64,000 nt of DNA from an uncultured Candidatus Saccharibacteria bacterium (GCA_964361825.1 CAYICB010000002.1:5845-69844), one strand, 5' to 3'; numbered from the stretch's first letter, positions 3,107 through 18,409 are shown. Made by a program: numbers and translations. The notes: a model not told the origin generated them from the letters alone.

Positions 3107-4060
3107 ATGTCTCTCTCAATTGGCATTGTGGGCCTACCAAATGTGGGAAAATCGACGCTGTTTAATGCCCTGACGGGGAAGGGCGTGCCGGCGGAGAATT
3201 ATCCGTTTTGTACCATTGATCCATCGGTGGGGATTGTGGGCGTGCCCGACCCTAGGCTGGCTAAATTGGCAGAATTTAGTAAATCGGCCAAGACGATTCC
3301 GGCGGCGATTGAATTTGTTGACATTGCGGGGCTGGTGAAAGGCGCCTCCAAGGGCGAGGGCCTCGGGAATCAATTTCTCTCGCATATTCGTGAAGTGGAT
3401 GCGATTCTGCACATGGTGCGCGTTTTTGCCGACGACAAAGTGACGCATGTGAACAATAAAGTGGATCCTCTAAACGATATCGAAACGATTGGTTTGGAAC
3501 TCATTCTCGCTGACCTCGCCACGGTAGAGAAGCGCCGCAGTAATTTGCAAAAAGAGGTGAAGCGCGGAGATAAAAATGCGATTGCCGAAGACGCCCAATT
3601 GGCCGAAGCTGAAGCATTGCTGAAAGATGGCAAGCCCTCCTTCGCGATTAAACATTTGCACCTCTTGAGCGCCAAACCCGTGTTCTATGTGCTCAACACT
3701 TCAAGTGCAACAGAGAACGCCCCCACTTCATTCGTTGGTAACGAACTTCGCGGGGCAGGAGTGGTGGTAAAAGTTGATCCCGTCTTTGGCGAGGGGCTCG
3801 ATGATCTAATTAAAGCGAGTTATAAATTGCTGGGCCTTGCGACCTATTTTACAACAGGGGAAGATGAAACGCGGGCTTGGACCTTCAAACTCGGTTCCAC
3901 GGCGCCGGAGGCGGCCGCGGCGATTCACACCGACTTCCGCGATAAATTTATTAAAGCCGATGTGATTAATTGGGAAGATCTTCTCGCCGGCGGCCACTGG
4001 CGCTTGGAAGGTAAAGAATACTTGGTAAAAGATGGGGATGTGATTGAGTTTAAAATATAA
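3107..4060 (+). CDS. ychF: ribosome-binding ATPase YchF (Obg-like GTPase family)
   Basis: N-terminal GIVGLPNVGKSTLFNALT P-loop, coiled-coil insert, C-terminal TGS-like region (GDVIEFKI). Confidence 0.9.
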   Translation: MSLSIGIVGLPNVGKSTLFNALTGKGVPAENYPFCTIDPSVGIVGVPDPRLAKLAEFSKSAKTIPAAIEFVDIAGLVKGASKGEGLGNQFLSHIREVDAILHMVRVFADDKVTHVNNKVDPLNDIETIGLELILADLATVEKRRSNLQKEVKRGDKNAIAEDAQLAEAEALLKDGKPSFAIKHLHLLSAKPVFYVLNTSSATENAPTSFVGNELRGAGVVVKVDPVFGEGLDDLIKASYKLLGLATYFTTGEDETRAWTFKLGSTAPEAAAAIHTDFRDKFIKADVINWEDLLAGGHWRLEGKEYLVKDGDVIEFKI

Positions 4061-4065
4061 AAAAA

Positions 4066-4098
4066 GACCGGCACGCATGGTGCCGGGTTGCCTTTTTT
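4066..4098. terminator. rho-independent terminator (hairpin CCGGCAC-GCATG-GTGCCGG plus T6), between convergent genes
   Basis: Perfect 7-bp GC stem followed by a T-run on the plus strand and an A-run upstream. Serves ychF and the convergent ORF. Confidence 0.7.
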
Positions 4099-4107
4099 GA
4101 TTTGGGG

Positions 4108-4554
4108 TTAACAAAATAAAGGCAGATAATTACTCGAGGGTAGTTTAATCTCTGATGACCACCCACTCACACGGAGAACAAAGGTGACATTCGACCTCGA
4201 CTTATCGAGGTAAACCTCCAATGAAGAAAACTCCACCAAGAGGTTAGAGACTACCAATCCAGTTTGAGTTTCTGGATCGAAAGACACTCCTTTGTTCGGT
4301 CGAAGAAATAAGTCAAAATCCACGGTGACATTGCGTGGGATCAAAGAACGCGGCAGGTTGTGAGGAAAATTAATTTGCGGATAATGAGGGGTAACATTAT
4401 CACTGATGGTGTTTTCTACCACCAAACTCACAAACCAACCTTCTTGCCCTTTGTGATAGGGGAAAATTACAAACCTTACTTTTGGGTATAGTTTGCCGCC
4501 CTCCACCTCTACCTTCGGTATTATGCCCCAATCCGAATCTTTTCCAATGTGCAT
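4108..4554 (-). CDS. hypothetical protein
   Basis: 148-aa ORF, no recognisable motif. Confidence 0.35.
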   Translation of the reverse strand: MHIGKDSDWGIIPKVEVEGGKLYPKVRFVIFPYHKGQEGWFVSLVVENTISDNVTPHYPQINFPHNLPRSLIPRNVTVDFDLFLRPNKGVSFDPETQTGLVVSNLLVEFSSLEVYLDKSRSNVTFVLRVSGWSSEIKLPSSNYLPLFC

Positions 4555-4643
4555 ATCGCACCTCCTTTTCTGGTTTAATAAATATCAAAAAGAGGGGTGG
4601 TTGTCAATGGTTTGTTTTGTTTGATCGGTGTTATCATTTAAAA

Positions 4644-5195
4644 ATGCAAAATTCACGCTTTCTCAAATGGATCTTGGCTCTCGCTATTGTGATTGTTCTT
4701 AACCTCTTTTTCAATTACGCCATCCACTTGGTTTATGAAGCGCCACAGTGGGAAAATTTTTGTCCAACCAAACAAGTAAATATTATGCCTCAAACCAAAG
4801 AAGCTTGTTTAGATGAAGGCGGTAGTTGGACAGAGGAAAATGGTGAAATGATAACGACAATACCTCTTTTTGGTCCTGGAGATTCGGCCCCAAGGCGTAC
4901 TAGCTATTGCGATGTTAACTTCACCTGTGACCGAGAATTCGACAGTTATCAATCAGTTTATAATCGCAATGTTTTCTTGATCTTAGTGGGAGCTGGCCTA
5001 GCAACACTGTTGCTTAGCCTTTTTGTTGCCCTCACTTCACCTGTTTCGCTCGGCCTCTCGCTTGGCGGCGTGCTCTCAATAATTGTTGGTTCAATTCGTT
5101 ATTGGTCGGAGATGCAAGATTACCTCCGCGTCATTCTCCTCGCCGTCGCTCTTATTCTCCTCATCTGGCTCGGCATCAAGAAGTTTAGGGAATAA
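4644..5195 (+). CDS. hypothetical membrane protein (probable start at 4644 rather than 4482)
   Basis: The in-frame ATG at 4644 avoids overlap with the convergent ORF. N-terminal TM helix and two C-terminal TM helices. Confidence 0.45.
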   Translation: MQNSRFLKWILALAIVIVLNLFFNYAIHLVYEAPQWENFCPTKQVNIMPQTKEACLDEGGSWTEENGEMITTIPLFGPGDSAPRRTSYCDVNFTCDREFDSYQSVYNRNVFLILVGAGLATLLLSLFVALTSPVSLGLSLGGVLSIIVGSIRYWSEMQDYLRVILLAVALILLIWLGIKKFRE

Positions 5196-5201
5196 ATCAC
5201 C

Positions 5202-5909
5202 CTAACTGTTGAACATCGGATGTTCAACAATCTCTGCCAGATCTTTGGCCCCACTTGTTTGTACCCATTCGTGATAATCATCACTTTTTGCAAACTGTTC
5301 GCGAATTGGCTCGGTGTGTAGGAGGTTTGACCAACGGTTCTTAGAAAGGAAGTCTTGATAACTAGACCAAGGATATTCATGGGCCTTATTTCTCCAGCCA
5401 GTTAGCTCACAACAATTCCGATGAATATAAGCTGAGGCATATAACAGCTGTTCATTGTCGCCGATATGCGAAAATTTAAAAGCCCCCTGAAATAAGTAAC
5501 CACTCGCTTGGTATTTGGTATTAAAATATTTGGTGTAACTGTTACCCACTCTTTGCATATACTTCGATATTCCTCCCTCCTTTACTTCTTCTGCGATCAA
5601 GTGAAAATGATTAGGCATCAAGGCGAAGGCAATGAGACGCAGTCCGCGTTCTCGGGTGATTTTTTCTTCCATTGCCCTGTCAGTGTTGAACATCCGATGT
5701 TCAACATATCGAGTGACAAGTCGACCGGGGTTGTCGATTGTTTCTGGCCCTTGAAAATAAAGAAGGGAAAGCAAAAACCGAGCTCGATCACGATCGTCGA
5801 GAAAAATTTTCCTCTTTAAAACCCCGCGGTTGTAAATATGATAAAATTCACCGGGAGCTAATGTTTGCACTCGTTTCATGGTGTCTGTTGAACATCCGAT
5901 GTTCAACAT
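5202..5909 (-). CDS. IS200/IS605-like Y1 (HUH) tyrosine transposase, RAYT-like
   Basis: FYHIYNRG ... MPNHFHLI (HuH motif) ... catalytic-Tyr region YIHRN ... YPWSSY. This is the standard Y1 transposase / REP-associated tyrosine transposase layout. Both gene ends and one internal site carry the 23-bp palindrome. Confidence 0.75.
   Translation of the reverse strand: MLNIGCSTDTMKRVQTLAPGEFYHIYNRGVLKRKIFLDDRDRARFLLSLLYFQGPETIDNPGRLVTRYVEHRMFNTDRAMEEKITRERGLRLIAFALMPNHFHLIAEEVKEGGISKYMQRVGNSYTKYFNTKYQASGYLFQGAFKFSHIGDNEQLLYASAYIHRNCCELTGWRNKAHEYPWSSYQDFLSKNRWSNLLHTEPIREQFAKSDDYHEWVQTSGAKDLAEIVEHPMFNS
5207..5229. repeat. REP-like 23-bp palindrome TGTTGAACATCGGATGTTCAACA (copy at 3' end of RAYT gene)
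   Basis: Perfect 11+1+11 palindrome. Identical copies at 5684, 5886 and 14442; a compensatory variant at 49814. Confidence 0.8.
5684..5706. repeat. REP-like palindrome copy (inside RAYT coding sequence)
   Basis: TGTTGAACATCCGATGTTCAACA, translated in frame as VEHRMFN. Confidence 0.8.
5886..5908. repeat. REP-like palindrome copy (at 5' end of RAYT gene)
   Basis: TGTTGAACATCCGATGTTCAACA, overlapping the annotated start codon region. Confidence 0.8.
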
Positions 5910-5943
5910 TATACGGTATCGTAAGGATTGTGTTTGGGAACAA

Positions 5944-8900
5944 CTATCTCGTCAACTCCTTCATCCCTTCTACCACGAGGCTGGGTTCGCCGTTTCTTAG
6001 CGAGAGTTTGCCTTTAATCGCCACGCATTTTTCGGGTTCGAGGAGTTCGCGACATTCGGCAAAAGTGCGCGAGAAAATTACGAGCTCAATGGAGTCGTTG
6101 AAGTCGGTGAGTTTAGCAAAGCACATCCGGTCGCCCTTCTTAGTGTTAATCAGTTTAATTTCTTCTAACACGCCGGCCACCACGGTGGCGGTGCCGTCTT
6201 TCAAACCTTTGATTTTAGTAATCGAGCGACCAATCGCTTCAATTTTCTCGCGGAATTCTTCGAGCGGATGACCAGAAACATAGAGACCGAGTAGCTCTTT
6301 TTCCCAAGCGAGTTTTTCTTTAGCCGAGATATCGGGCGCCGGTTTGAGTTTGAAGTCGGGCACACTCGCTTTATCGGTCATCGCCGAAAAGAGTGAGTCT
6401 TGATTGCCACCCAATTTGCCACGCTCGCGATTATACTCAAGCGCCGCGTCTAAATTGGCGAGCAAGGTCCCTCTTTCTCCTGCCTTAGAGTTGGGAGAGC
6501 TAAAACAATCCATTGCGCCCGATTTAATCAGCGCTTCGAGTGATTTTTTATTCAAATTACGATGAGTAATGCGCTCAAGCAGGTCGCTAAAACTTTTGAA
6601 CGGGCCTCTCGTTTTGCGCTCACGCACAATCACTTCAGCAATCTCGGCCCCCAAGTTTTTGATGGTCAGCAAACCGAAACTAATTTTATCGCCGTCGGCA
6701 CGGGGCACCCTTGGGTCTGGGTCTTTATGGGTGACCCTTGCCGGCGCTTTGATGACCGTAAAGTCGCTGAAACTCTCATTGATATCTGGCGGTAAAACGG
6801 GGATGCCGAGCAACTTGCACTCGCTAATAATCTCGGCGATCGTTTCGATATTGCCGCTCTCGGCCGAGAGCGCGGCGGTCATATATTCACCCGGATAATT
6901 AGCCTTGAGATAAGCTGTTTGATACGCCACGCGACCATAACTCGCGGCATGCGCCTTGTTGAAGCCGTAACCCTGGAAGGGCTCAAAAAGATTCCAAATT
7001 TCTTCGGCTTTTTCTTTAGTTAAATCACTGTGTTTGATACAACCTTCAACAAACATCACATGCTGTTTCTTCATTTCTTCCGGAATCTTTTTACCGACGG
7101 CTTTGCGGAATTTATCCACTTCGCCCCAGTTGTACCCGGCCACTTCGATGGCCGTCATCAGGAGATCGTCTTGATAGACGAGCACGCCAAAGGTTGGCGC
7201 GAGATAACTCTTCATCTTCGGATGGAGAAATTTTGTTGGCTTCTTGCCATGTTTCCGCGCAATATACTCATAAATATTGTCCATCGGCCCCGGACGATAA
7301 AGCGCCACCATGACATTAATATCTTCCACGCGCGTGGGCTTAAGTTCCTTCAGCGCGCGCGTCATGCCGGTGCCATTAAGCTGAAACAGGCCAATGGTGT
7401 GACCGGCGGTAAGCATGATAAAAGTTTTTTTGTCATCGAGGGGAATTTTTTCAATATCAATTTTCTCACCTCGAGTTTTCTCGATAATTCTAATCGCGCC
7501 TTCGATAATCGAGAGGTTTCTAATGCCGAGAAAGTCGAATTTCAAGAGTCCTGCCTCTTCGACCACATACATATCAAATTGCGTAATAATCTTGCCGCCC
7601 TTCGGGTCGAATTGGAGGGGCACGAAGTCGGTGAGCGGCGTGGGCGAGATCACCACACCCGCAGCATGCACCGAGATGTGCCGAGCATTGCCTTCAATTT
7701 TCTTGGCGAGATCAATAATTTCTTTGGTTGCAGTATCGGTATCATAAAGCTGTTTTAATTCTGGTGTAATCTCAAGCGCGTGATCAATCGTCATCGGGAA
7801 GCCTTGCGAACCCATCGGGATTAAATTAGAGATTTTATCGCCCACGGCATAAGGGTGACCGAGCGCTCGCGCCACATCACGCACCGCGCCCCGCGCCATC
7901 ATCGAGCCGAAAGTACCAATTTGCGCCACATGATCTTCACCATACTTTTTCTTTACATAATCAATCACTTCATCGCGTCGACGATCGGCAAAGTCCATGT
8001 CGATATCGGGCGGGCTCGGGCGATCGGGATTAAGAAAGCGCTCGAAGGGGAGATTATAATAAAGCGGGTCAACACTAGAAATACCAATGAGATGCGAGGT
8101 AAAACAGCCGGCCGCCGAGCCTCGAGTATTGGTAAAGATGCCTTGGGCGCGGGTAAAGTTGAAGATGTCAGCCACCACGAGAAAGTAGGGAGCGTAACCC
8201 TTGTTGATAATAACTTCGAGCTCGTAAGCGAGGCGAGTGGCAGCTTCTTCTTTGCGATCGGGATTGCGTTCGAGATATTCGGGCAAGCGACTTTCGGCAA
8301 ATTTTCGTAGTTCTTCTTCTGGTGTCTCGGCGAGGGTAAGTTGAAATTTGGGAAAGACCCATTTGCCAAGCTCCAGTTTGAGATCACAAGCCTCGGCAAT
8401 TTTGAGGGTGTTATCGACGGCTTCAGGCGCGTCTTTAAAATGCTCGCGCATGGTGGCCTCGTCAATCAGTGAGAAATCATCACCGGCCTTGGTATAGCGT
8501 TTATTATCATCGGCATCAGTATTTGTACCAATCGCCACAAGCGTATCATGAGCCTTCGTGTCGTCTGGTTGTAAGTAGTGAGCATCTTGAGTAGCAACCA
8601 AGGGAATTCCCAATTCGTGAGCTAGTTTGATCGCTTGTTCTTTAAGCTCCGGATAGCGTTCAATTTTGGGGTGATGAAAAATTTCAATAAAATAATTTTC
8701 TGGGCCAAAAATTTCTCGATATTCATTAGCAATCTTTTTTGCTTCCTCATAATTCCGCGCCAGAATAGCGCGGGACAATTCACTGGCCATACAACCAGAT
8801 AAGCAAATAACCCCCTCGTGGTGCTCGCGCATCAGCTCTTTATCAATCCGTGGTTTATAATAATAACCTTCGAGGTTGGCTTTGGTCACGAGCTTAACCA

Positions 8901-10653: not shown

Positions 10654-11577
10654 TTGATTATGGCCAATCGGCACTTATCTAGAAGTCTTGCGATGCAATC
10701 TCTCTTCGAGTGGGACGAGCGCGGTGGCGAAACCAAGAAGTTGCCCGAGATTATTCAGGCCAATGTGGCCGAGTTTGCTCCGGGGATAGAAGATACTGAT
10801 TTTGTGGACCGTTTAGTGCAAGGAGTGGTGGCCAAACAAGCGGAGCTCGATGAGATTATTGAGAAAGCCGCTCCCGATTGGCCCATTAATCTTATCGCCC
10901 CAATTGACCGCAATGTACTCCGGATGGGTCTTTATGAACTTTTGTTTGCCGATCGCCACGAAGTGCCAGCAAAGGTGGCGATCAATGAAGCTATCGAGAT
11001 TGCTAAAACTTTCGGTGGAGAAAATAGCGGTAAATTTGTAAACGGCGTTCTCGGCACGGTGTATAAAGAGCTCGGCGAACCGGGTAAAGATGAGGTTCCC
11101 GCCAAGAAAAAGCGCCCCAAGGATGTGCCTTATGATGAAATGCCGATTGAGACGCTGGGTGGCGCGGTGGTGTATGCTCGTTTTGACGAAGAAATTAAAT
11201 TGGCAATGGTGCACGACATTTTTGGCTACTGGACGCTATCAAAAGGACGGATCGAAACTGGCGAAAAGGCCGAACAAGACACCGCAAAAAAAATCAAAGA
11301 AGAAATGGCTTTAGAGGTCAAGATTTTGGCTTCGCTTGGCACCAATGAATACATCGCTTCTGATCCCGAGCGGGGCAAAATTCGCAAACAAGTGAAATAC
11401 TTTTTGGCCGAAGCGCTTAATCCTACCGAAATTCATTTACCAAAAAAGGAGGAGAAGGGTGGTCTTGACGATGTGCGCTGGTTCCACTTGGCCGAAGTGC
11501 CGGATCTTAAGATGTATGATGACGTTTTACCTTTTGTGACCAAAGCGATCAAACAATTAAATGACGCCAAAAATTGA
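10654..11577 (+). CDS. nusB: NusB antitermination factor fused to a C-terminal Nudix-like domain
   Basis: N-terminus: RSLAMQSLFEWD ... NGVLG (NusB fold). C-terminal ~140 aa: GGAVVYARFDEE.KLAMVHD..GYWTLSKGRIETGEKAEQDTAKKIKEEMAL, a Nudix fold with a degenerate box (RE replaced by KK, G by A). Confidence 0.8.
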   Translation: MIMANRHLSRSLAMQSLFEWDERGGETKKLPEIIQANVAEFAPGIEDTDFVDRLVQGVVAKQAELDEIIEKAAPDWPINLIAPIDRNVLRMGLYELLFADRHEVPAKVAINEAIEIAKTFGGENSGKFVNGVLGTVYKELGEPGKDEVPAKKKRPKDVPYDEMPIETLGGAVVYARFDEEIKLAMVHDIFGYWTLSKGRIETGEKAEQDTAKKIKEEMALEVKILASLGTNEYIASDPERGKIRKQVKYFLAEALNPTEIHLPKKEEKGGLDDVRWFHLAEVPDLKMYDDVLPFVTKAIKQLNDAKN

Positions 11578-12259
11578 GCAATTCGAAACAGTTTTGGGGT
11601 TAAAGTTTAAGAATCAGGCGCTTTTGGGCGAGGCGCTCGTTCATCGGTCTTATTTAAATGAGCACCGAAACTTTAGTTTGCCCCACAATGAACGGTTAGA
11701 ATTTTTGGGTGATGCCGTGCTCGAACTTGTGATTACCGACCACCTTTTCCGCCTGTATCCCAAAGAGAATGAAGGCGCGCTGACCGCTTACCGCGCGGCG
11801 CTGGTAAATGCCAATACGCTCGGGGAAATTGCGGCCGGACTCGGGGTCAATGATTATTTACTGCTCTCAAAGGGTGAGTCGCGCGACAATGGCCGAGCGA
11901 GGCAAGTAATTCTCGCCAATGCCATCGAGGCGATTATTGGGGCGATTTATCTCGACCAAGGTTACGAAGTGGCGGCCAGTTTTATTGGCCGGAATTTTTT
12001 CGATCAAGTGCCAAGCATCATTGCCGGTGAACGCTTCCGTGATGCTAAAAGCCTCTTCCAAGAACGCGCGCAGGAAAAAGAAAACACTACTCCCGTTTAT
12101 CGCGTTTTGGGAGAAAATGGTCCCGATCACGAAAAAACCTTTACCGTCGGTCTTTACTTGGTAGAAGAAAAAGTGGCTGAAGGCACGGGTCACTCCAAAC
12201 AAGAGGCCGAGCAAGCGGCGGCCGCCGCCGGACTCTTGGTAAAAAACTGGGGAAAATAA
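11561..12259 (+). CDS. rnc: ribonuclease III
   Basis: ERLEFLGDAVLELVITDHLF signature plus a C-terminal dsRBD. Confidence 0.9.
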   Translation: MTPKIEQFETVLGLKFKNQALLGEALVHRSYLNEHRNFSLPHNERLEFLGDAVLELVITDHLFRLYPKENEGALTAYRAALVNANTLGEIAAGLGVNDYLLLSKGESRDNGRARQVILANAIEAIIGAIYLDQGYEVAASFIGRNFFDQVPSIIAGERFRDAKSLFQERAQEKENTTPVYRVLGENGPDHEKTFTVGLYLVEEKVAEGTGHSKQEAEQAAAAAGLLVKNWGK

Positions 12260-12265
12260 GAGCGT

Positions 12266-14407
12266 ATGCGCCTCAAATCTCTCGAGCTCACCGGTTTTAA
12301 ATCGTTTAGTAAGAAAACGGTTTTAATTTTTGACTCTGCTGTCACCGCCGTGGTGGGTCCTAATGGCTCAGGGAAAAGTAATGTGGCCGAGGCTTTTCGT
12401 TGGGTTTTGGGCGAACAATCGCTCAAATCTTTGCGCGGCAAACGCGGTGAGGACTTAATTTGGAATGGTTCCCAAGGCGCGCCCCGAGCAATTCGAGCTA
12501 GTGTTACGGTAACCTTCGATAATCGCGACAAGAAATTTAATGTTGCCTACGATGAAGTAAAAATTGAGCGCGTAGTGCATCGCGACGGCTTGAATGACTA
12601 TCTTTTGAACGGCACGGCGGTGCGCCTAAAAGATATTTTAGAACTTTTAGCGGGGGCTTCGCTTGGTTCTTCGGGCCATCATATTATCCGCCAAGGCGAG
12701 GCCGACCGCGTGCTGGAGTCGAGCGCCGCCGAACGACGAGAATTACTCGAAGACGCCTTTGGTTTGCGTCTGTATCAATGGAAAATTGCCGAAAGCGAGA
12801 AGAAACTAGAGAAAACTGAAGATAATTTAAAACAAGTGGCCTCGCTCCGGCGTGAACTTGCGCCACATTTGAAATATCTCGAGCGCGAGATGGAAAAAAT
12901 TAAGCGAGCCGAAAGTTTGCGCGTAGAACTAAAGGAATTTTATGAAATTTATTTAGCAACCGAGAAAGCGTATTTGGCCCAAGGCGCCTTCGCTCTAGAA
13001 AGTGAGCTTCGGCGACCCAAGGGCGAATTGCATGAAGTAGAAACAAAATTAAATCACTTGAGTCGCGAGGAGGTGAAGGTGGATGAGCGGGCGCTGGATG
13101 AAAAAAGACGCGCGCGGGAAATAATTTCGCGAGATTTAGGCCGGATTGAAGGCTTAATTGAGGCGAGGCGAATGCCGATGGCTTTGCCAAGAGCCACAGA
13201 AGCTATTACTAAAAGTCGCGTCGAAGAATTGTTTGGGCGTTTGGAAACTTGGCTTGCTGAAGCGGAGACGAGCAAAATCGTCGAAGTTTGGCAAGAAATT
13301 GGAGGGAGAATTAAACGAGCGCTAAAAGAATTTTGGCATCCGCCAGCTAGCGGAGCCGCACCAACCGAAGACAGAACAGCAGAAATTAAGGATTTGGAGA
13401 ACGAGCAGGAGAAATTAGAGAAAGAACGGGCCGAGCTCGAAACAGAAATTAGCACTTTACTTGAGCGGGCTAAAACCGTAAATGAGGCTGAGAAAGAAGT
13501 GTTTGCCCTGCGTTTACGAAAAAATGAACTCATGAGTGAGTTGGCGACACTGAAGATGAAAGAAGAAAGATTGGCGCTCGAGAAAAATCACTTCACAACC
13601 ATGCTCGCCGAGGCCAAGAATTTGCTCGGTGGCATTCTTGGTGAGGGGAAAATTGAAGATATTAATGATCGCGCGGCTCAAGAAGTGGCGCGACGAGAAA
13701 TCGAGAAAAGAAAACTTAGACTCGAAGACCTCGGAGTCGAGAGTGGCGATACAGTGAAGGAATATAAGGAAACTGTGGCGCGCGATGAGCACTTGGCCAA
13801 GGAGATTACGGATCTGGAGGCCAGTGGCGCGAGTTTGCGCCAAATTATTGAAGAATTGCAAATCAGGATTGATCGCGAATTCCGCGAAGGTCTCGCCAAA
13901 ACCAATCAGGAATTCCAAAAGTTCTTCGCCCTCATGTTTGGCGGCGGCACAGCTGAATTAATTTTAACTAAACCACCTAGGGCCAAGCGCGATGACCTTG
14001 AACTTACGGCTGAAATACCTAGCCTAAACAGCGAAACGCCGTCGGCCAAAGAAGAAGGTGTTGATATTAATTTGAGCCTGCCACGCAAGAAAATCCGCGG
14101 GCTCGAGATGCTCTCGGGTGGCGAACGCTCGCTCACCGCTATTTCGCTCCTCTTCGCGCTCTCGCAGGTTAACCCGCCGCCCTTCATGATTCTCGACGAA
14201 ACCGACGCCGCTCTCGACGAGGCCAACTCGCGCAAATATGGCGACTTGGTTGAACAACTAGCCCAACACTCGCAACTCATTCTCATTACCCATAATCGCG
14301 AAACAATGTCGCGCGCTTCCGTCCTCTACGGCGTGACCATGGGCGGCGACGGTGCCTCCCGCCTCCTCTCCATCAAACTCGACGACGCGATGGGGTATGC
14401 GAAGTGA
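12266..14407 (+). CDS. smc: SMC-like chromosome segregation ATPase (short form, 713 aa)
   Basis: N-terminal Walker A (GPNGSGKSNVAEAFRWVLGEQS), long coiled coil, C-terminal signature LSGGERSLTAISLLFAL and Walker B ILDETDAALD. Conserved rnc-smc synteny. No recognisable hinge domain. Confidence 0.75.
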   Translation: MRLKSLELTGFKSFSKKTVLIFDSAVTAVVGPNGSGKSNVAEAFRWVLGEQSLKSLRGKRGEDLIWNGSQGAPRAIRASVTVTFDNRDKKFNVAYDEVKIERVVHRDGLNDYLLNGTAVRLKDILELLAGASLGSSGHHIIRQGEADRVLESSAAERRELLEDAFGLRLYQWKIAESEKKLEKTEDNLKQVASLRRELAPHLKYLEREMEKIKRAESLRVELKEFYEIYLATEKAYLAQGAFALESELRRPKGELHEVETKLNHLSREEVKVDERALDEKRRAREIISRDLGRIEGLIEARRMPMALPRATEAITKSRVEELFGRLETWLAEAETSKIVEVWQEIGGRIKRALKEFWHPPASGAAPTEDRTAEIKDLENEQEKLEKERAELETEISTLLERAKTVNEAEKEVFALRLRKNELMSELATLKMKEERLALEKNHFTTMLAEAKNLLGGILGEGKIEDINDRAAQEVARREIEKRKLRLEDLGVESGDTVKEYKETVARDEHLAKEITDLEASGASLRQIIEELQIRIDREFREGLAKTNQEFQKFFALMFGGGTAELILTKPPRAKRDDLELTAEIPSLNSETPSAKEEGVDINLSLPRKKIRGLEMLSGGERSLTAISLLFALSQVNPPPFMILDETDAALDEANSRKYGDLVEQLAQHSQLILITHNRETMSRASVLYGVTMGGDGASRLLSIKLDDAMGYAK

Positions 14408-14465: not shown

Positions 14466-14729
14466 ATGAAAACAAAAAGTTTTAAGGAAAAGGTGTTTGC
14501 GGTGGTGGGTAAAATTCCGAAAGGGAAGGTGCTAACTTACAAACAGGTTGCGGAAAGAGCCGGTTCGCCCAGAGCGGCGCGGGCAGTGGGGAGTATTTTG
14601 AAAAACAATTTTGATCCTGCGATCCCGTGTCATCGGGTTATTCGCTCTGATGGGGGAATGGGCGGTTACAATCGCGGCGGCAAAAACAAAAAATTAGAAA
14701 TTTTGAAAAAAGAAGGGGCGAGAGTATAA
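14466..14729 (+). CDS. MGMT-family (Ogt C-terminal domain) small protein
   Basis: 87 aa with the HTH and PCHRV active-site cysteine motif of O6-alkylguanine-DNA alkyltransferase. Lacks the N-terminal domain. Confidence 0.7.
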   Translation: MKTKSFKEKVFAVVGKIPKGKVLTYKQVAERAGSPRAARAVGSILKNNFDPAIPCHRVIRSDGGMGGYNRGGKNKKLEILKKEGARV

Positions 14730-14737
14730 TCGGGCAA

Positions 14738-17473
14738 ATGGCGCCAAAGAAAAAAGCGAAAAAGAAGGCTTATTTGCTGGTGGAATTCCCGTACCCCTCC
14801 GGCGAGGGTTTGCATGTGGGCCATGTGCGGAGCTACACCGCGATGGATATTGTGGCCCGCAAACGGCGACTGCAAGGCGAGGAAGTGATGTTCCCGATGG
14901 GTTGGGACGCCTTTGGTTTGCCGGCCGAGAATTATGCGATTAAAACTGGTGTGAATCCGGCCATTACCACCAAAAAAAATATTGCTAACTTCAAACGGCA
15001 AATGAAGTCACTTGGACTCTCCTTCGACTGGTCGCGAGAGGTAAACACCACGGATCCAAATTATTATAAATGGACGCAGTGGCTCTTTTTGCAATTTTAC
15101 AAAAACGGCCTCGCTTACAAAGCGAAGTCAGAGATTAATTGGTGCCCGAAAGATAAAATCGGCCTAGCCAATGAAGAAGCGATTGGTGGTATTTGTGAGC
15201 GTTGCGGGACAAAAACAGAAAAGAAGGAAAAGGAGCAATGGATGCTCGCGATTACCAAATACGCCGACCAGCTCGATCGCGATCTCGACCTTGTGGATTA
15301 TCCCGAATCAGTAAAGGCGCAACAAAAAAATTGGATAGGAAAAAGTGAGGGCTGGGAGATTGGGTTCGACAATATTAAAATCTTCACCACGCGCCCCGAC
15401 ACTATTTTCGGCGCAACTTTTATCGCTGTGGCCCCAGAAGTGGCTAAGAAATTAACCGGAAAAGATTTTGGGATTAAAGTTGATAATGATCGAGAAAATA
15501 AAGAAAAACTTGGTGTTGATACTGGTTTGCGAGTGAAGAATCCCGCGAACGGGGAAATGTTACCAGTTTGGGCCGTTAATTATGTCTCGGCCGATTACGG
15601 CACCGGCGCGATTATGGGCGTGCCCGCCCACGATGAACGCGATTTCGAATTTGCCAAGAAATATAATTTGCCGATTAGGCAGGTAATTATGCCGAGCCTC
15701 ATCCATGAATCCAACCCACCATTAGAAGGAAAAGAAAACACTTTTCGCAAGGTGGTTCTCTCGATCGTATACAATCCAAAAACAAAAAAATATTTAACCC
15801 TCAAGTGGAAAAAACAACCGTGGGTCTCGTTTGTGACCGGTGGAGTGGAAGACGGAGAAAACCACGCGGAAGCAGCGGCGAGAGAAATCACAGAAGAAAC
15901 AGGGTATAAAAATGTCCGCCTCGTGCGTAGTTTTGGAATGACTGAGGCCTACTTTTTTGCCGCGCACAAAAATGTAAATCGCCGAACGAACGCTGAACAC
16001 TTCCTTTTCGAACTCGTAGATGATACTCAAGAAAAAATTTCGCCCGAAGAGCAGGAACAATATGATTTACAATGGTTATCTTTTGCCGAACTTAAGACAA
16101 TAAATTTGCAACATGCTGAAACAGCAATGCTTCTTCGGCGCATTGAAACTGGGCAAGACTTTTTCTCTGATTCGGGTCGCCTTTTCAATTCTGGTAAATT
16201 CAACGACCTAATGTCCGATGAAGCCAAAAATCAAATTGCAAAAGAGGTGGGCGCAAAGGCGGTGACAACACACAAACTCCGTGATTGGGTGTTTTCGCGA
16301 CAGCGCTACTGGGGTGAACCGATTCCGATGATTTATTGCGAAAAATGCGCCCTAAACGATTCCGTCGGGCAAGGTTGGCAACCGGTGCCGGAGAAAGATT
16401 TGCCAGTGAAATTGCCAAAGGTAGATAAGTATCAGCCGACGGATAATGGCGAATCGCCGCTCGCGAATATCAAAAAGTTTACAGAAGTGAAATGCCCCAA
16501 GTGTAAAAGCGCGGCGCGACGAGAGACCGACACCATGCCCAATTGGGCCGGCTCGAGTTGGTATTATTTGCGTTACATCGACCCAAAAAACAAAAAAGAA
16601 TTTGCGAGCAAGAAAAAACTTGAAAGCTGGCTTCCGATAGATTGGTACAATGGCGGCATGGAGCACACCACGCTCCACCTGCTCTACTCGCGCTTCTGGC
16701 ATAAGTTTTTATACGACCAAAAACTGGTTCCAACCTCCGAACCTTATACCAAACGCACTTCGCACGGCGTTATTTTGGCTCAAGATGGCGAGAAAATGAG
16801 CAAATCGCGTGGCAATGTAATTAATCCGGATGACATTGTGAAGCTTTACGGCGCCGATGCCCTGCGTCTCTACGAAATGTTTATGGGCCCCTTCGAGCAA
16901 GCGGTATCGTGGCAAACGGGGAGTATTATTGGGGTGAAGCGGTTTTTAGAGAGAGTAGAAAGAGTAAATTCAAAAGGCAAAAGGCAAAAGTCAAAAGGAC
17001 AAGGCAAAAGTCAAAAGTTGGAGATTTTACTCAACCAGTGCGCGAAGAAAGTGAGCGATGATATTGAGGCGATGCGCTTCAACACCGCCGTGAGTTCGCT
17101 AATGATTGCGCTTAATGAGCTCGAAAAAGCCGAGAAAATTCCAGCGAAGGTGTGGGAAACTTTCTTAATCTTACTTTCACCCTTTGCCCCGTTCTTAACC
17201 AAAAAACTGTTGGGTAAAAGTGCCTCGCACCGCGGAGCCTCGGCGAAGTGGTGGCCCAAATATGACCCGAGTCTGGTTGCCGAAGAAAAGAAAACGCTCT
17301 CCGTACAAATTAATGGCAAAATGCGAGGAATTCTTGAGGTTACCGGCACCGAAACCGAGGCCGAAATTATCAACCTTGCCGAGCAAGACCCCAATCTCGC
17401 CAAGTGGTTTGCCGGTAAACCCCGGAAAAAAGCCATCTACCAACCGGGTAGATTTATTAATCTGATTATTTAA
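14738..17473 (+). CDS. leuS: leucyl-tRNA synthetase with an inserted Nudix hydrolase domain
   Basis: HVGH and KMSKS class I motifs; TTRPDT and GVDTG (CP1) motifs; anticodon-binding C-terminus. A ~150-aa insert after EFAKKYNLPIRQVI carries a perfect Nudix box GGVEDGENHAEAAAREITEETGY. Confidence 0.95.
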   Translation: MAPKKKAKKKAYLLVEFPYPSGEGLHVGHVRSYTAMDIVARKRRLQGEEVMFPMGWDAFGLPAENYAIKTGVNPAITTKKNIANFKRQMKSLGLSFDWSREVNTTDPNYYKWTQWLFLQFYKNGLAYKAKSEINWCPKDKIGLANEEAIGGICERCGTKTEKKEKEQWMLAITKYADQLDRDLDLVDYPESVKAQQKNWIGKSEGWEIGFDNIKIFTTRPDTIFGATFIAVAPEVAKKLTGKDFGIKVDNDRENKEKLGVDTGLRVKNPANGEMLPVWAVNYVSADYGTGAIMGVPAHDERDFEFAKKYNLPIRQVIMPSLIHESNPPLEGKENTFRKVVLSIVYNPKTKKYLTLKWKKQPWVSFVTGGVEDGENHAEAAAREITEETGYKNVRLVRSFGMTEAYFFAAHKNVNRRTNAEHFLFELVDDTQEKISPEEQEQYDLQWLSFAELKTINLQHAETAMLLRRIETGQDFFSDSGRLFNSGKFNDLMSDEAKNQIAKEVGAKAVTTHKLRDWVFSRQRYWGEPIPMIYCEKCALNDSVGQGWQPVPEKDLPVKLPKVDKYQPTDNGESPLANIKKFTEVKCPKCKSAARRETDTMPNWAGSSWYYLRYIDPKNKKEFASKKKLESWLPIDWYNGGMEHTTLHLLYSRFWHKFLYDQKLVPTSEPYTKRTSHGVILAQDGEKMSKSRGNVINPDDIVKLYGADALRLYEMFMGPFEQAVSWQTGSIIGVKRFLERVERVNSKGKRQKSKGQGKSQKLEILLNQCAKKVSDDIEAMRFNTAVSSLMIALNELEKAEKIPAKVWETFLILLSPFAPFLTKKLLGKSASHRGASAKWWPKYDPSLVAEEKKTLSVQINGKMRGILEVTGTETEAEIINLAEQDPNLAKWFAGKPRKKAIYQPGRFINLII
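16970..17018. repeat. tandem 14-nt unit GGCAAAAGTCAAAA (about 3 copies) inside leuS, in frame
   Basis: Encodes the KGKRQKSKGQGKSQK low-complexity insert. Related copies at 10332-10349 (reverse complement, intergenic) and 41919-41949 (inside fmt). Confidence 0.55.
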
Positions 17474-17592: not shown

Positions 17593-18213
17593 TTACTCAA
17601 TAGAGGATCTGATAGCCTCTATTACCCGCTCTTTAATGGGGGCAAAGTCTGGTCGCCTGATCGTGTAACGAAGATCTCCAATGCGCACCTTTTGGGCCAA
17701 AACCACCACCAAAGCCAGTAGTTTTTCCTCTGTTTCTGTTGGGGCTGGTGGTGTTTGAACGGCATCACTCTCATCCTTCGGGTCAACCGTCCGCAACACT
17801 TCTTTGCGCACCTTCTTAAGATTGAGTCCCGAGGCAATCAAAACTTGCGCCGCGATGCCATCCTGCTCACGAAGCAGACCGAGCAATAAATGTTCACTGC
17901 CCACCCAACCATGATTCAGATTACGCGCTTCCTCAATGGTGTACTCGATGACCTTTTTGGCTCGCGGCGTCTTCGGCAGATTGCCCATAGTGACCATTTC
18001 GGGCCCACTTTTGATCAGTTTCTCCACCTCTATGCGGACCTTGCGCAGGTCGACATCGAGGTTCTTGAGAACATCGGCGCCAACACCAGACCCTTCCTTC
18101 ACCAAACCAAGCAGGATGTGTTCGGTGCCAAGGTACTCGTGATTGAATCGCTGAGCCTCCTGATTGGCCAAATGCATAATTTTTCTTGCACGATCGGTAA
18201 ATCCTTCATACAT
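17593..18213 (-). CDS. Clp N-terminal (Clp_N repeat) domain protein, no ATPase module
   Basis: Two Clp_N repeats (FTDRARKIMHLANQEAQRFNHEYLGTEHILLGL; AKKVIEYTIEEARNLNHGWVGSEHLLLGLL). Probable start at MYEGF. Confidence 0.7.
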   Translation of the reverse strand: MYEGFTDRARKIMHLANQEAQRFNHEYLGTEHILLGLVKEGSGVGADVLKNLDVDLRKVRIEVEKLIKSGPEMVTMGNLPKTPRAKKVIEYTIEEARNLNHGWVGSEHLLLGLLREQDGIAAQVLIASGLNLKKVRKEVLRTVDPKDESDAVQTPPAPTETEEKLLALVVVLAQKVRIGDLRYTIRRPDFAPIKERVIEAIRSSIE

Positions 18214-18409
18214 CTTTTCACCCCTTTCGGTGTTCGGTATCAAAGAACAAAGGTTAATTATCAAGCGGTCACGCGCCGTTTGTCCTTGCCAAAGTCCAAA
18301 CTACCGCTAAGATGGAAGTTAGTCAAATTGGGTGGTTTTAAACAGGTTTAGTTGACGGGAATAGGGTTAAATGATAGAAATAGGTAATAAATTAGATTAT
18401 TAGTAAAAT

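Follow-up and report, generated by a model that had tools for sequence, protein, structure and literature searches.

A Nudix hydrolase domain embedded in the leucyl-tRNA synthetases of Patescibacteria, with a predicted position at the rim of the editing pocket

What is a Nudix hydrolase domain doing inside a leucyl-tRNA synthetase (LeuRS)? The question is raised by the leuS gene of a 64,000-nucleotide stretch of DNA, here called the window, from an uncultured Candidatus Saccharibacteria bacterium (GCA_964361825.1 CAYICB010000002.1:5845-69844). LeuRS is among the best-studied enzymes, and its CP1 editing domain is a drug target for benzoxaboroles. Here we describe a Nudix module embedded in the LeuRS of the window, its spread among related bacteria and the functions that it may perform. 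The gene, the module and its two diagnostic motifs are as follows.

14738..17473, + strand: leuS, encoding a 911-amino-acid (aa) bacterial-type leucyl-tRNA synthetase with an embedded Nudix domain (open reading frame (ORF) translation, Pfam, NCBIfam, alignment)
15692..16162, + strand: the inserted Nudix module, aa 319-475 (157 aa), placed at CP1 loop I4b (Pfam, alignment, models)
15839..15907, + strand: the Nudix box GGVEDGENHAEAAAREITEETGY (G368...Y390), with the putative catalytic residues E383, E386 and E387 (pattern search, homolog alignment)
15968..15982, + strand: the family-specific motif K411-x-x-N414-R415, downstream of the box (homolog alignment)

Both partners of this composite protein are recognized by curated models. 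Pfam NUDIX (PF00293) matches aa 336-460 with an E-value of 2.3e-16 and 60.5 bits against a cut-off of 21.1, covering profile positions 2-128 of 134. The NCBIfam equivalog TIGR00396 (leuS_bact) reaches 883 bits (cut-off 548.4), in two stretches that flank the insert, and the top phmmer match of the full 911-aa protein in the PDB sequence set is the Thermus thermophilus LeuRS (E 9e-180). A preliminary description, made from the window without database searches, had proposed a real Nudix domain inside a full LeuRS at 15690-16160, for which Pfam should return tRNA-synt_1 plus NUDIX. Both families were found, and the coordinates agree with nucleotides 15692-16162. The textbook Nudix box with all catalytic glutamates that it had recognized is likewise an exact match at aa 368-390. 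The box reads G368-x5-E374-x7-R382-E383-I-x-E386-E387-x-G389-Y390, which fits G-x5-E-x7-REUxEExGU, and it is the sole match to this pattern in six frames of the whole window. Within the module, a conserved N-linker (aa 319-336) leads into the Nudix fold (aa 336-460), which is followed by a C-terminal helix and its linker.

Could such a composite be an artefact, produced by a mis-called ORF, a chance motif or a chimeric assembly? NCBI has an identical 911-aa protein, MEK7505007.1, under the name 'class I tRNA ligase family protein [Patescibacteria group bacterium]'; the longest contig on record for it measures 84.9 kb. An 81%-identical protein (P0003) lies on a 716-kb contig with conserved synteny. 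All of the best 120 homologs of the full protein (48-100% identity) contain PF00293 together with LeuRS domains. A profile of the insert, run against 1.84 billion sequences, matched 172 cluster representatives with E<=1e-30, rising to 494 when the limit was E<=1e-10. A word-indexed search with the insert alone returned a single protein, the free-standing P0001, the insert being too divergent for that index. In a GTDB survey of one genome per species, with a query built from 8 closer sequences, at least 238 relatives were confirmed and 80 loci were kept. The Nudix domain lies inside the LeuRS ORF in 76 of these; three are free-standing and one is a fragment. The record titles of these loci name Buchananbacteria, Uhrbacteria, Zambryskibacteria, Taylorbacteria, Komeilibacteria, Adlerbacteria, Moranbacteria, Nomurabacteria, Kerfeldbacteria, Paceibacterota, Minisyncoccia, Levyibacteriota, Saccharibacteria and Peribacteria.

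The chimera that the preliminary description had considered, and with it a chance motif, is ruled out by the deposited protein, the relative on the 716-kb contig, the 120 homologs and the 76 loci of the survey in related genomes that it had proposed. Hundreds of independent assemblies share the same junctions, the reading frame is continuous, the Pfam E-value is of the order of 2e-16, and no GC anomaly was found across the insert. We give the artefact explanation practically no weight and consider it close to certain that the insertion is genuine and clade-wide. The Nudix-in-CP1 arrangement is the standard LeuRS architecture of Patescibacteria, with hundreds of public records, which are labelled automatically as 'class I tRNA ligase family protein' or 'leucyl-tRNA synthetase'. 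It had been put forward as an undescribed architecture. Full-text searches, whose coverage mostly leaves out subscription-only papers, found no description of LeuRS-Nudix or synthetase-Nudix proteins, but the rarity implied by that claim does not hold. The architecture is public in the sequence databases, yet apparently unstudied.

Where in LeuRS does the module sit? Residues 8-318 align to T. thermophilus LeuRS residues 32-363 and residues 476-694 to residues 377-592, so that about 157 aa stand in for a loop of 13 residues. The insert starts 17 residues past D302, the strictly conserved Asp of the editing site. In a model of CP1 plus Nudix it lies between a helix at aa 300-308 (alpha2, EFAKKY) and a helix at aa 493-503 (alpha3). 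The bacterial CP1 core has the order beta1-beta2-alpha1-beta3-beta4-beta5-beta6-alpha2-alpha3-beta7, with two named peripheral insertions (PMC3747510). Thr373 in I4b of the Streptococcus pneumoniae LeuRS lies about 4 A from the ligand in the editing pocket, and I4ae, the archaeal and eukaryal counterpart of I4b, covers the opening of that pocket (PMC3747510). Because S. pneumoniae Asp347 corresponds to Asp302, Thr373 falls at about aa 328, within the conserved N-linker. From the sequence register and the predicted secondary structure, the Nudix domain thus appears to occupy the peripheral loop I4b of CP1, at the rim of the editing pocket. The preliminary description had instead placed it at the leucine-specific domain, and in this it was mistaken: that domain is deleted from the window LeuRS.

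A short and variable 13-residue I4b loop in T. thermophilus is therefore replaced here by a 157-aa enzyme domain. The I4ae of archaeal and eukaryal LeuRS is likewise a lineage-specific insertion at the equivalent CP1 position by the pocket opening (PMC3747510). However, I4ae is a pocket-covering helix with no catalytic function of its own, whereas the insert of the window has a complete Nudix enzyme fold. Residues P319, D/H323, N326, P327, G331 and K332 of the N-linker are conserved in the homolog alignment. An intein or other self-splicing element was rejected as an explanation. Pfam finds no intein family, the insert begins PSLIH and ends DFFSDSG followed by RLF, where splice junctions would call for Cys, Ser or Thr at +1 of the insert and of the C-extein and a terminal His-Asn, and the junction residues P319 and G480 are conserved in homologs as part of the protein.

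Is the host still a working synthetase? The remaining features of the protein bear on this point.

aa 5-208, + strand: tRNA-synt_1 (Pfam scan)
14813..14824, + strand: the HIGH signature of the class I synthetic site, H26-V-G-H29 (translation, aligned to T. thermophilus LeuRS)
15326..15691, + strand: the N-terminal part of the CP1 editing domain, aa 197-318 (Pfam PF13603)
15386..15403, + strand: the editing-site T-rich motif T217-T-R-P-D-T222 (homolog alignment; motif defined in PMC3747510)
15629..15643, + strand: the editing-site motif H298-D299-E-R301-D302, including the strictly conserved Asp (homolog alignment)
16163..16297, + strand: the C-terminal part of the CP1 editing domain (aa 476-520: ...GRLFNSGKFNDL...KLRDWVFS), downstream of the insert (alignment, model)
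16778..16807, + strand: KMSKS (K686-MSKS690), preceded by an AQDGE linker in place of the leucine-specific domain (alignment to T. thermophilus LeuRS)
17030..17356, + strand: the anticodon-binding domain, Pfam Anticodon_1, aa 765-873, followed by the C-terminal domain to aa 911 (Pfam, alignment)

The class I signatures HIGH and KMSKS are both present in the translation when it is set against T. thermophilus LeuRS. The LeuRS editing domain PF13603 matches aa 197-320 with 160.8 bits, over profile positions 1-143 of 185 only. In an alignment of 121 LeuRS homologs, T217, T218, R219 and T222 of the T-rich motif are invariant, D221 is kept in 118 and P220 in 95. Residues H298, D299, R301 and D302 of the HDxRD motif are also present in all 121, and E300 in 108. 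The domain order is that of the bacterial LeuRS with CP1 used for comparison (T. thermophilus 1H3N/2BYT, E. coli 4AQ7/4ARC and the S. pneumoniae CP1), with which HIGH, KMSKS, the T-rich motif, the conserved Asp and the anticodon-binding and C-terminal domains are all shared. Judged by these motifs, the enzyme has kept an intact synthetic site (HIGH, KMSKS) as well as an intact CP1 editing site (T-rich motif, conserved Asp), and the Nudix domain adds to the editing function instead of replacing it.

The leucine-specific domain precedes KMSKS; most bacterial LeuRS have one, but not all. In T. thermophilus it spans approximately residues 577-634. No counterpart of T. thermophilus residues ~593-636 was found in the alignment, where the window protein reads ...LAQDGEKMSKS and residues 686-911 then correspond to T. 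thermophilus 637-876. The consensus of 60 aligned homologs, LAEGGEKMSKS, likewise lacks the domain. A 5-residue linker in this place differs from the typical bacterial LeuRS. The domain is also missing from the LeuRS of Bacillus subtilis and Mycoplasma mobile, the latter having a GKDG tetrapeptide instead (PMC3643597), so its loss is no bar to membership in the bacterial LeuRS.

The window LeuRS and its 81%-identical relative P0003 begin about 25 residues later than other LeuRS of the Candidate Phyla Radiation (CPR) (window 14738-14800, + strand), and the N-terminus KYDHKKIEKKWQKxW that is usual in CPR LeuRS is absent from both. No upstream frame encodes the missing N-terminal segment, and the leuS start lies 9 nt past the upstream ORF.

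Is the embedded domain an enzyme? Across the 121 homologs the box is kept at G368 (121), G369 (120), E371 (102), E374 (113), R382 (114), E383 (121), E386 (118), E387 (120) and G389 (121). A family signature outside the box is as well preserved, with R337 in 120, W362 in 117, K411 in 121, N414 in 120, R415 in 117, E438 in 117 and W446 in all 121. Pooling all sources gave 364 unique Nudix copies, of which 303 are distinct copies at the canonical LeuRS site. The box is conserved across the 364. At the canonical site E383 is present in 99%, E386 in 96%, E387 in 99%, K411 in 99%, N414 in 95% and W446 in 97%. Mean identity of the insert outside the conserved box is approximately 43%, against approximately 67% for the LeuRS body. 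Retention of the glutamates in a domain that has otherwise diverged to this extent is what would be expected of a catalytically constrained domain.

It had also been asked whether the domain folds autonomously. Modelled alone, the insert is predicted to adopt a compact Nudix fold, with its alpha/beta/alpha sandwich, at a predicted local distance difference test score (pLDDT) of 93.9 and a predicted template modelling score (pTM) of 0.87. The model of CP1 plus Nudix (aa 195-520) reaches pLDDT 92 and pTM 0.86, and in it the two linkers have a pLDDT of 93-96. This suggests that the Nudix domain is held in a fixed orientation against CP1 and is not loosely tethered.

A module at this position might nevertheless be non-catalytic: a structural or tRNA-binding extension of CP1, similar to I4ae or replacing the lost leucine-specific domain, or else a nucleotide sensor. 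Its site is a known place of peripheral insertion that shapes the editing pocket, the model predicts rigid docking, and the leucine-specific domain is absent from both the window protein and the consensus of the 60 aligned homologs. Some extra copies of the domain, described below, have degenerate boxes such as TEIEQE. However, such a role would not account for metal-binding glutamates kept in 96-99% of the 303 canonical-site copies, with a conserved box in a domain otherwise diverged to some 43% identity. The Nudix fold is also dispensable for CP1 integrity, because an insert-free LeuRS exists alongside a separate Nudix gene. We consider a non-catalytic role very improbable, and judge from the conserved residues that the embedded Nudix domain is probably catalytically active.

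Divergence of the insert was also compared with that of its host. Among the 121 homologs, pairwise identities of the insert show no correlation with those of the LeuRS body (r = 0.05). The canonical site is shared by two insert subtypes, 'NPKT.KYL' and 'KHWSEDKY', and their hosts are not partitioned accordingly. The uncoupled divergence may reflect domain swapping, or a sampling artefact arising from the narrow sampling range.

The I4b loop is not the only place where this family has entered a synthetase. Some LeuRS have extra copies just ahead of the CP1 core (after aa ~185-210, window numbering) or in the C-terminal half (after aa ~580), and tandem copies also occur. Up to three Nudix copies are found in one LeuRS (P0122, P0123, P0272 and the L042 ORF at 3239-8443, 1735 aa). 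The family has also been inserted in a second synthetase. P0254 and four relatives (P0274-P0277, 61-100% identity) are archaeal-type class II prolyl-tRNA synthetases (ProRS) in which an insert of the same Nudix family separates the anticodon-binding domain from the C-terminal domain of ProRS (locus L084, 2906-4837). The three glutamates are kept in all five, and R382 is replaced by Lys in four. The closest insert-free relatives of these ProRS are named Nanoarchaeota or Woesearchaeota (DPANN). By model name only, NCBIfam NF040702 ('isoleucine--tRNA ligase, N-acetyltransferase domain-containing') offers a precedent, a class I synthetase with an extra catalytic domain; both the synthetase and the inserted fold differ from those of the window.

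The multi-copy LeuRS homologs are P0010, P0011, P0016, P0027, P0032, P0054, P0062, P0083, P0105, P0110, P0122, P0123, P0133 and P0272. Some of the extra copies have an altered box; in the pre-CP1 copies of P0010 and P0016, for instance, it reads TEIEQE. Domains of other families are carried by several CPR LeuRS homologs: Ser_hydrolase or alpha-beta hydrolase by P0016, P0103, P0105, P0054, P0055, P0061 and P0085, HAD by P0120 and DUF559 by P0043 and P0093. Unassigned insertions of 114-136 aa are present in P0027, P0032 and P0059. The CPR LeuRS is a hotspot for inserted domains, mostly hydrolases, at window-equivalent positions ~210, ~487, ~542 and ~591.

The family also exists as separate genes, which account for approximately 35 of the 149 best representatives. 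These free-standing copies retain the same catalytic and family-specific residues. One of them (P0177, 161 aa) ends 3 bp upstream of a leuS without the insert (L087 3451-5303; L088 492-3217), in whose product the N-terminal part ends at aa 379 and the C-terminal part starts at aa 405. This pair is the split-gene counterpart of the fusion. Another (P0139, 'MutT (NUDIX family)' in its JGI name) ends 2 bp upstream of a leuS that itself has the insert. The synteny of that locus, leuS-sigma-like-DUF8128, is the same as at the loci of P0003 (L001/L002). The window shares the sigma-like neighbour with these loci, and Pfam finds no family in the ORF that comes next. A third (P0205) lies 13 bp past argS and about 600 bp ahead of ileS (L091 2279-8498).

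At the last locus the order is argS, the P0205 Nudix gene, a small ORF and a gene for a protein similar to isoleucyl-tRNA synthetase (IleRS); a second, unrelated Nudix gene and a dUTPase gene lie upstream. In the IleRS-like product Pfam finds His_Phos_1 (histidine phosphatase) between two tRNA-synt_1 stretches. At ten further loci, mostly labelled Saccharibacteria (L027, L029, L032, L039, L041, L044, L055, L056, L067 and L078), an ORF of ~167 aa with a weak match to the hidden Markov model (HMM) of the Nudix family (30-41 bits) is found on the same strand approximately 1.1 kb 3' of leuS.

The fusion, the several independent insertion sites, the archaeal ProRS and the operonic split genes argue for a functional link with aminoacyl-tRNA synthetases. 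For a pairing that has not been characterised, this evidence is unusually consistent. On balance we favour, with some reserve, the conclusion that the family is functionally coupled to these enzymes, though not exclusively.

To which Nudix family does the insert belong? The best score against the RppH models (NCBIfam PRK00714) is 37.1 bits (cut-off 118), that against NudB dihydroneopterin triphosphate diphosphatase (NF006961) is 38.2 bits (cut-off 103) and that against MutT 8-oxo-dGTP diphosphatase (NF008044) is 19 bits (cut-off 148). Membership of the RppH, NudB, MutT, NudE, NudI and NudC equivalogs was rejected, all NCBIfam scores falling far under the cut-offs. Profile searches of the PDB sequences gave weak matches only. 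The rust decapping effectors AvrM14-A/B were at the top, and lupin Ap4A hydrolase, NudB, Dcp2, AtNUDT7 and NUDT12 were among the others. The nearest structures found with Foldseek are hydrolases of diadenosine polyphosphates (Ap(n)A), RppH and uncharacterised MutT-like proteins. The comparison with known enzymes is distant throughout, with just 17-25% identity of the insert to Ndx1 (T. thermophilus), Rv2985 (Mycobacterium tuberculosis), CT771 (Chlamydia trachomatis), the Aquifex aeolicus Ap4A hydrolase and E. coli RppH. Unlike the asymmetric Ap(n)A hydrolases and RppH, the insert has a signature of its own (KWKK, HK-x2-NR and W446) and sits inside a synthetase. The Enterococcus faecalis MutT/nudix family protein (PDB 2AZW) has 17% identity to the insert and is free-standing; it points to no substrate, because its PDB description names none.

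A Tyr or another aromatic residue 16-18 residues past the Nudix box is said, after Dunn et al. 1999, to mark Ap(n)A hydrolases. In the window the aromatic pair F406/F407 stands at +16 and +17. Across the 364 copies these positions are F or Y in 362 and include Tyr in 243, a weak marker of the Ap(n)A subgroup. Ap(n)A-type substrates would be compatible with the nearest structures. We conclude from profile and motif comparisons that the LeuRS-type Nudix forms a distinct family among the small single-domain enzymes that act on (di)nucleoside polyphosphates or on RNA 5' ends.

The second half of that substrate range opens a different explanation, in which the domain would be an RNA-end pyrophosphohydrolase acting on bound tRNA or other RNA, with the synthetase supplying the RNA binding. 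It might remove a 5'-triphosphate or nucleotide cap, as RppH, Dcp2 or NudC-like enzymes do, or take a pyrophosphate or nucleotide adduct off the 3'-CCA end. E. coli RppH structures, RNA complexes included, recur among the best Foldseek matches, and the PDB profile search is led by the decapping effectors AvrM14-A/B and also includes Dcp2 and NUDT12. The insert at I4b would border the entrance of the pocket that A76 enters. All the synthetases named as fusion partners or neighbours, that is LeuRS, ProRS, IleRS and arginyl-tRNA synthetase (ArgRS), bind tRNA, and many residues of the family signature are basic (KWKK, K411, R415, R337). Against this, the RppH models score far below their cut-offs, and the same residues are retained where the enzyme is free-standing and has no RNA-binding partner. 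In ProRS the domain lies between the anticodon-binding and C-terminal domains, away from the acceptor end. We know of no tRNA substrate with a polyphosphate end in these organisms. Taken together, an RNA-end activity seems unlikely.

What, then, would a Nudix enzyme do in a synthetase? The mechanism that we favour treats the LeuRS as a working synthetase with a third catalytic module. This module would be a Mg2+-dependent Nudix pyrophosphohydrolase, with E383, E386 and E387 as putative metal ligands and E438 as candidate base, which would act in cis with the synthetase on a nucleoside-diphosphate-X compound. Its likeliest substrate would be Ap4A or another Ap(n)A, as an adenine-containing nucleoside polyphosphate that the synthetase makes or that is used there; an RNA 5'-polyphosphate or cap, as for RppH, would be the next candidate. 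Synthetases form Ap(n)A from aminoacyl-adenylate and ATP. Because synthetases make Ap(n)A and several of the nearest structures cleave it, Ap(n)A is the most economical candidate, although we propose it only tentatively. The reading as a whole, an active pyrophosphohydrolase coupled in cis to a working LeuRS with Ap(n)A as its most likely substrate, we regard as evenly poised. A stronger version would make the embedded Nudix a third, substrate-coupled site for quality control or repair of something that the synthetase makes or holds. For example, Ap(n)A or aberrant adenylates might be destroyed at source, or a pyrophosphate, nucleotide or cap adduct might be removed from the tRNA end at the editing pocket. 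This version we consider doubtful. The preliminary description had suggested a mis-activated adenylate, Ap4A or another nucleotide as possible substrates. An acyl-adenylate is not known to be a substrate of Nudix enzymes.

Several observations weigh against cis coupling with Ap(n)A as substrate. LeuRS is a weak producer of Ap4A, and to our knowledge ArgRS makes none. No curated Nudix subfamily model reaches its cut-off, and MutT-like and NTPase structures score nearly as well as the Ap(n)A hydrolases. One free-standing member (P0193) lies 5 bp downstream of fpg/mutM, an adjacency that suggests a sanitiser of 8-oxo-guanine nucleotides. Most of the free-standing members examined have no synthetase neighbour (P0172, P0001, L046, L048 and L062). 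Some of these LeuRS also contain hydrolase domains of unrelated families, namely Ser_hydrolase (after aa 210/542), HAD (after aa 591) or DUF559 (after aa 210), so LeuRS may simply tolerate insertions. That the synthetases of these organisms tolerate or attract hydrolase insertions generally tempers the coupling argument.

Much of this would fit a house-cleaning Nudix enzyme, for example a MutT-like one acting on oxidised (d)NTPs or another damaged nucleotide, that LeuRS merely carries. Fusion to an essential, constitutively expressed gene would secure its expression and retention in a tiny genome, with no link to aminoacylation. Since free-standing members keep the catalytic and family-specific residues, the enzyme does not need LeuRS. 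The fpg/mutM neighbour, the foreign hydrolase insertions, the JGI label of P0139 and the presence of MutT1, NudI and MutT-like structures among the best matches all point the same way. However, the score against the MutT equivalog (19 bits, cut-off 148) does not. A passenger would also leave unexplained why one family has entered LeuRS at no fewer than three sites, with as many as three copies per protein, and an archaeal ProRS too, why separate genes stand immediately ahead of leuS or in the interval from argS to ileS, and why rigid docking is predicted at the rim of the editing pocket. We therefore hold the house-cleaning explanation to be an unlikely one that still deserves some weight.

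A whole bacterial superphylum appears to use a LeuRS with a second hydrolase on its editing domain, at a loop that shapes the pocket. If the Nudix site and the synthetase are coupled, the arrangement would represent a novel form of quality control, over translation or over nucleotides, and tRNA charging would be linked directly to Ap(n)A or RNA-end metabolism in organisms short of most nucleotide metabolism. If the embedded Nudix is indeed a third, substrate-coupled site, it would define a previously unrecognised synthetase-linked pathway of nucleotide hydrolysis, typical of ultra-small symbionts (CPR, DPANN). The pairing is directly testable with recombinant protein, and LeuRS loci labelled Saccharibacteria carry the same insert, so tractable Saccharibacteria may allow tests in vivo. 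Annotation can be improved as well: the NCBI pipeline down-ranks these LeuRS to 'class I tRNA ligase family protein'.

The neighbourhood of leuS in the window contains a second Nudix-fold fusion to an RNA-related protein. At 10654-11577 (+ strand), 3 kb from leuS, a 307-aa ORF joins NusB (aa 9-138) to a NUDIX-like domain (aa 176-288, Pfam 37.5 bits). Its box, GRIETGEKAEQDTAKKIKEEMAL, is degenerate, with RE replaced by KK, and an RNase III gene comes next (11561-12259). With this box and no match to the family HMM, the NusB-Nudix fusion was rejected as a member of the LeuRS-type Nudix family. No tRNA genes, and no Rfam families hinting at a linked RNA, were found in the window. A short SMC_N-family protein of 713 aa (12266-14407, + strand) lies ahead of an 87-aa ORF directly upstream of leuS (14466-14729, + strand), which has only the DNA_binding_1 domain of MGMT, with the PCHR motif present. 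Downstream of leuS, a 223-aa protein with Clp_N only (17593-18264, - strand) lies between leuS and the Sigma70_r4/HARE-HTH gene. The Clp_N gene is missing from that spot in the related genome (L001/L002), where Sigma70_r4/HARE-HTH stands directly 3' of leuS. A YceG gene follows the Sigma70_r4/HARE-HTH gene both in the window and in the relative on the 716-kb contig.

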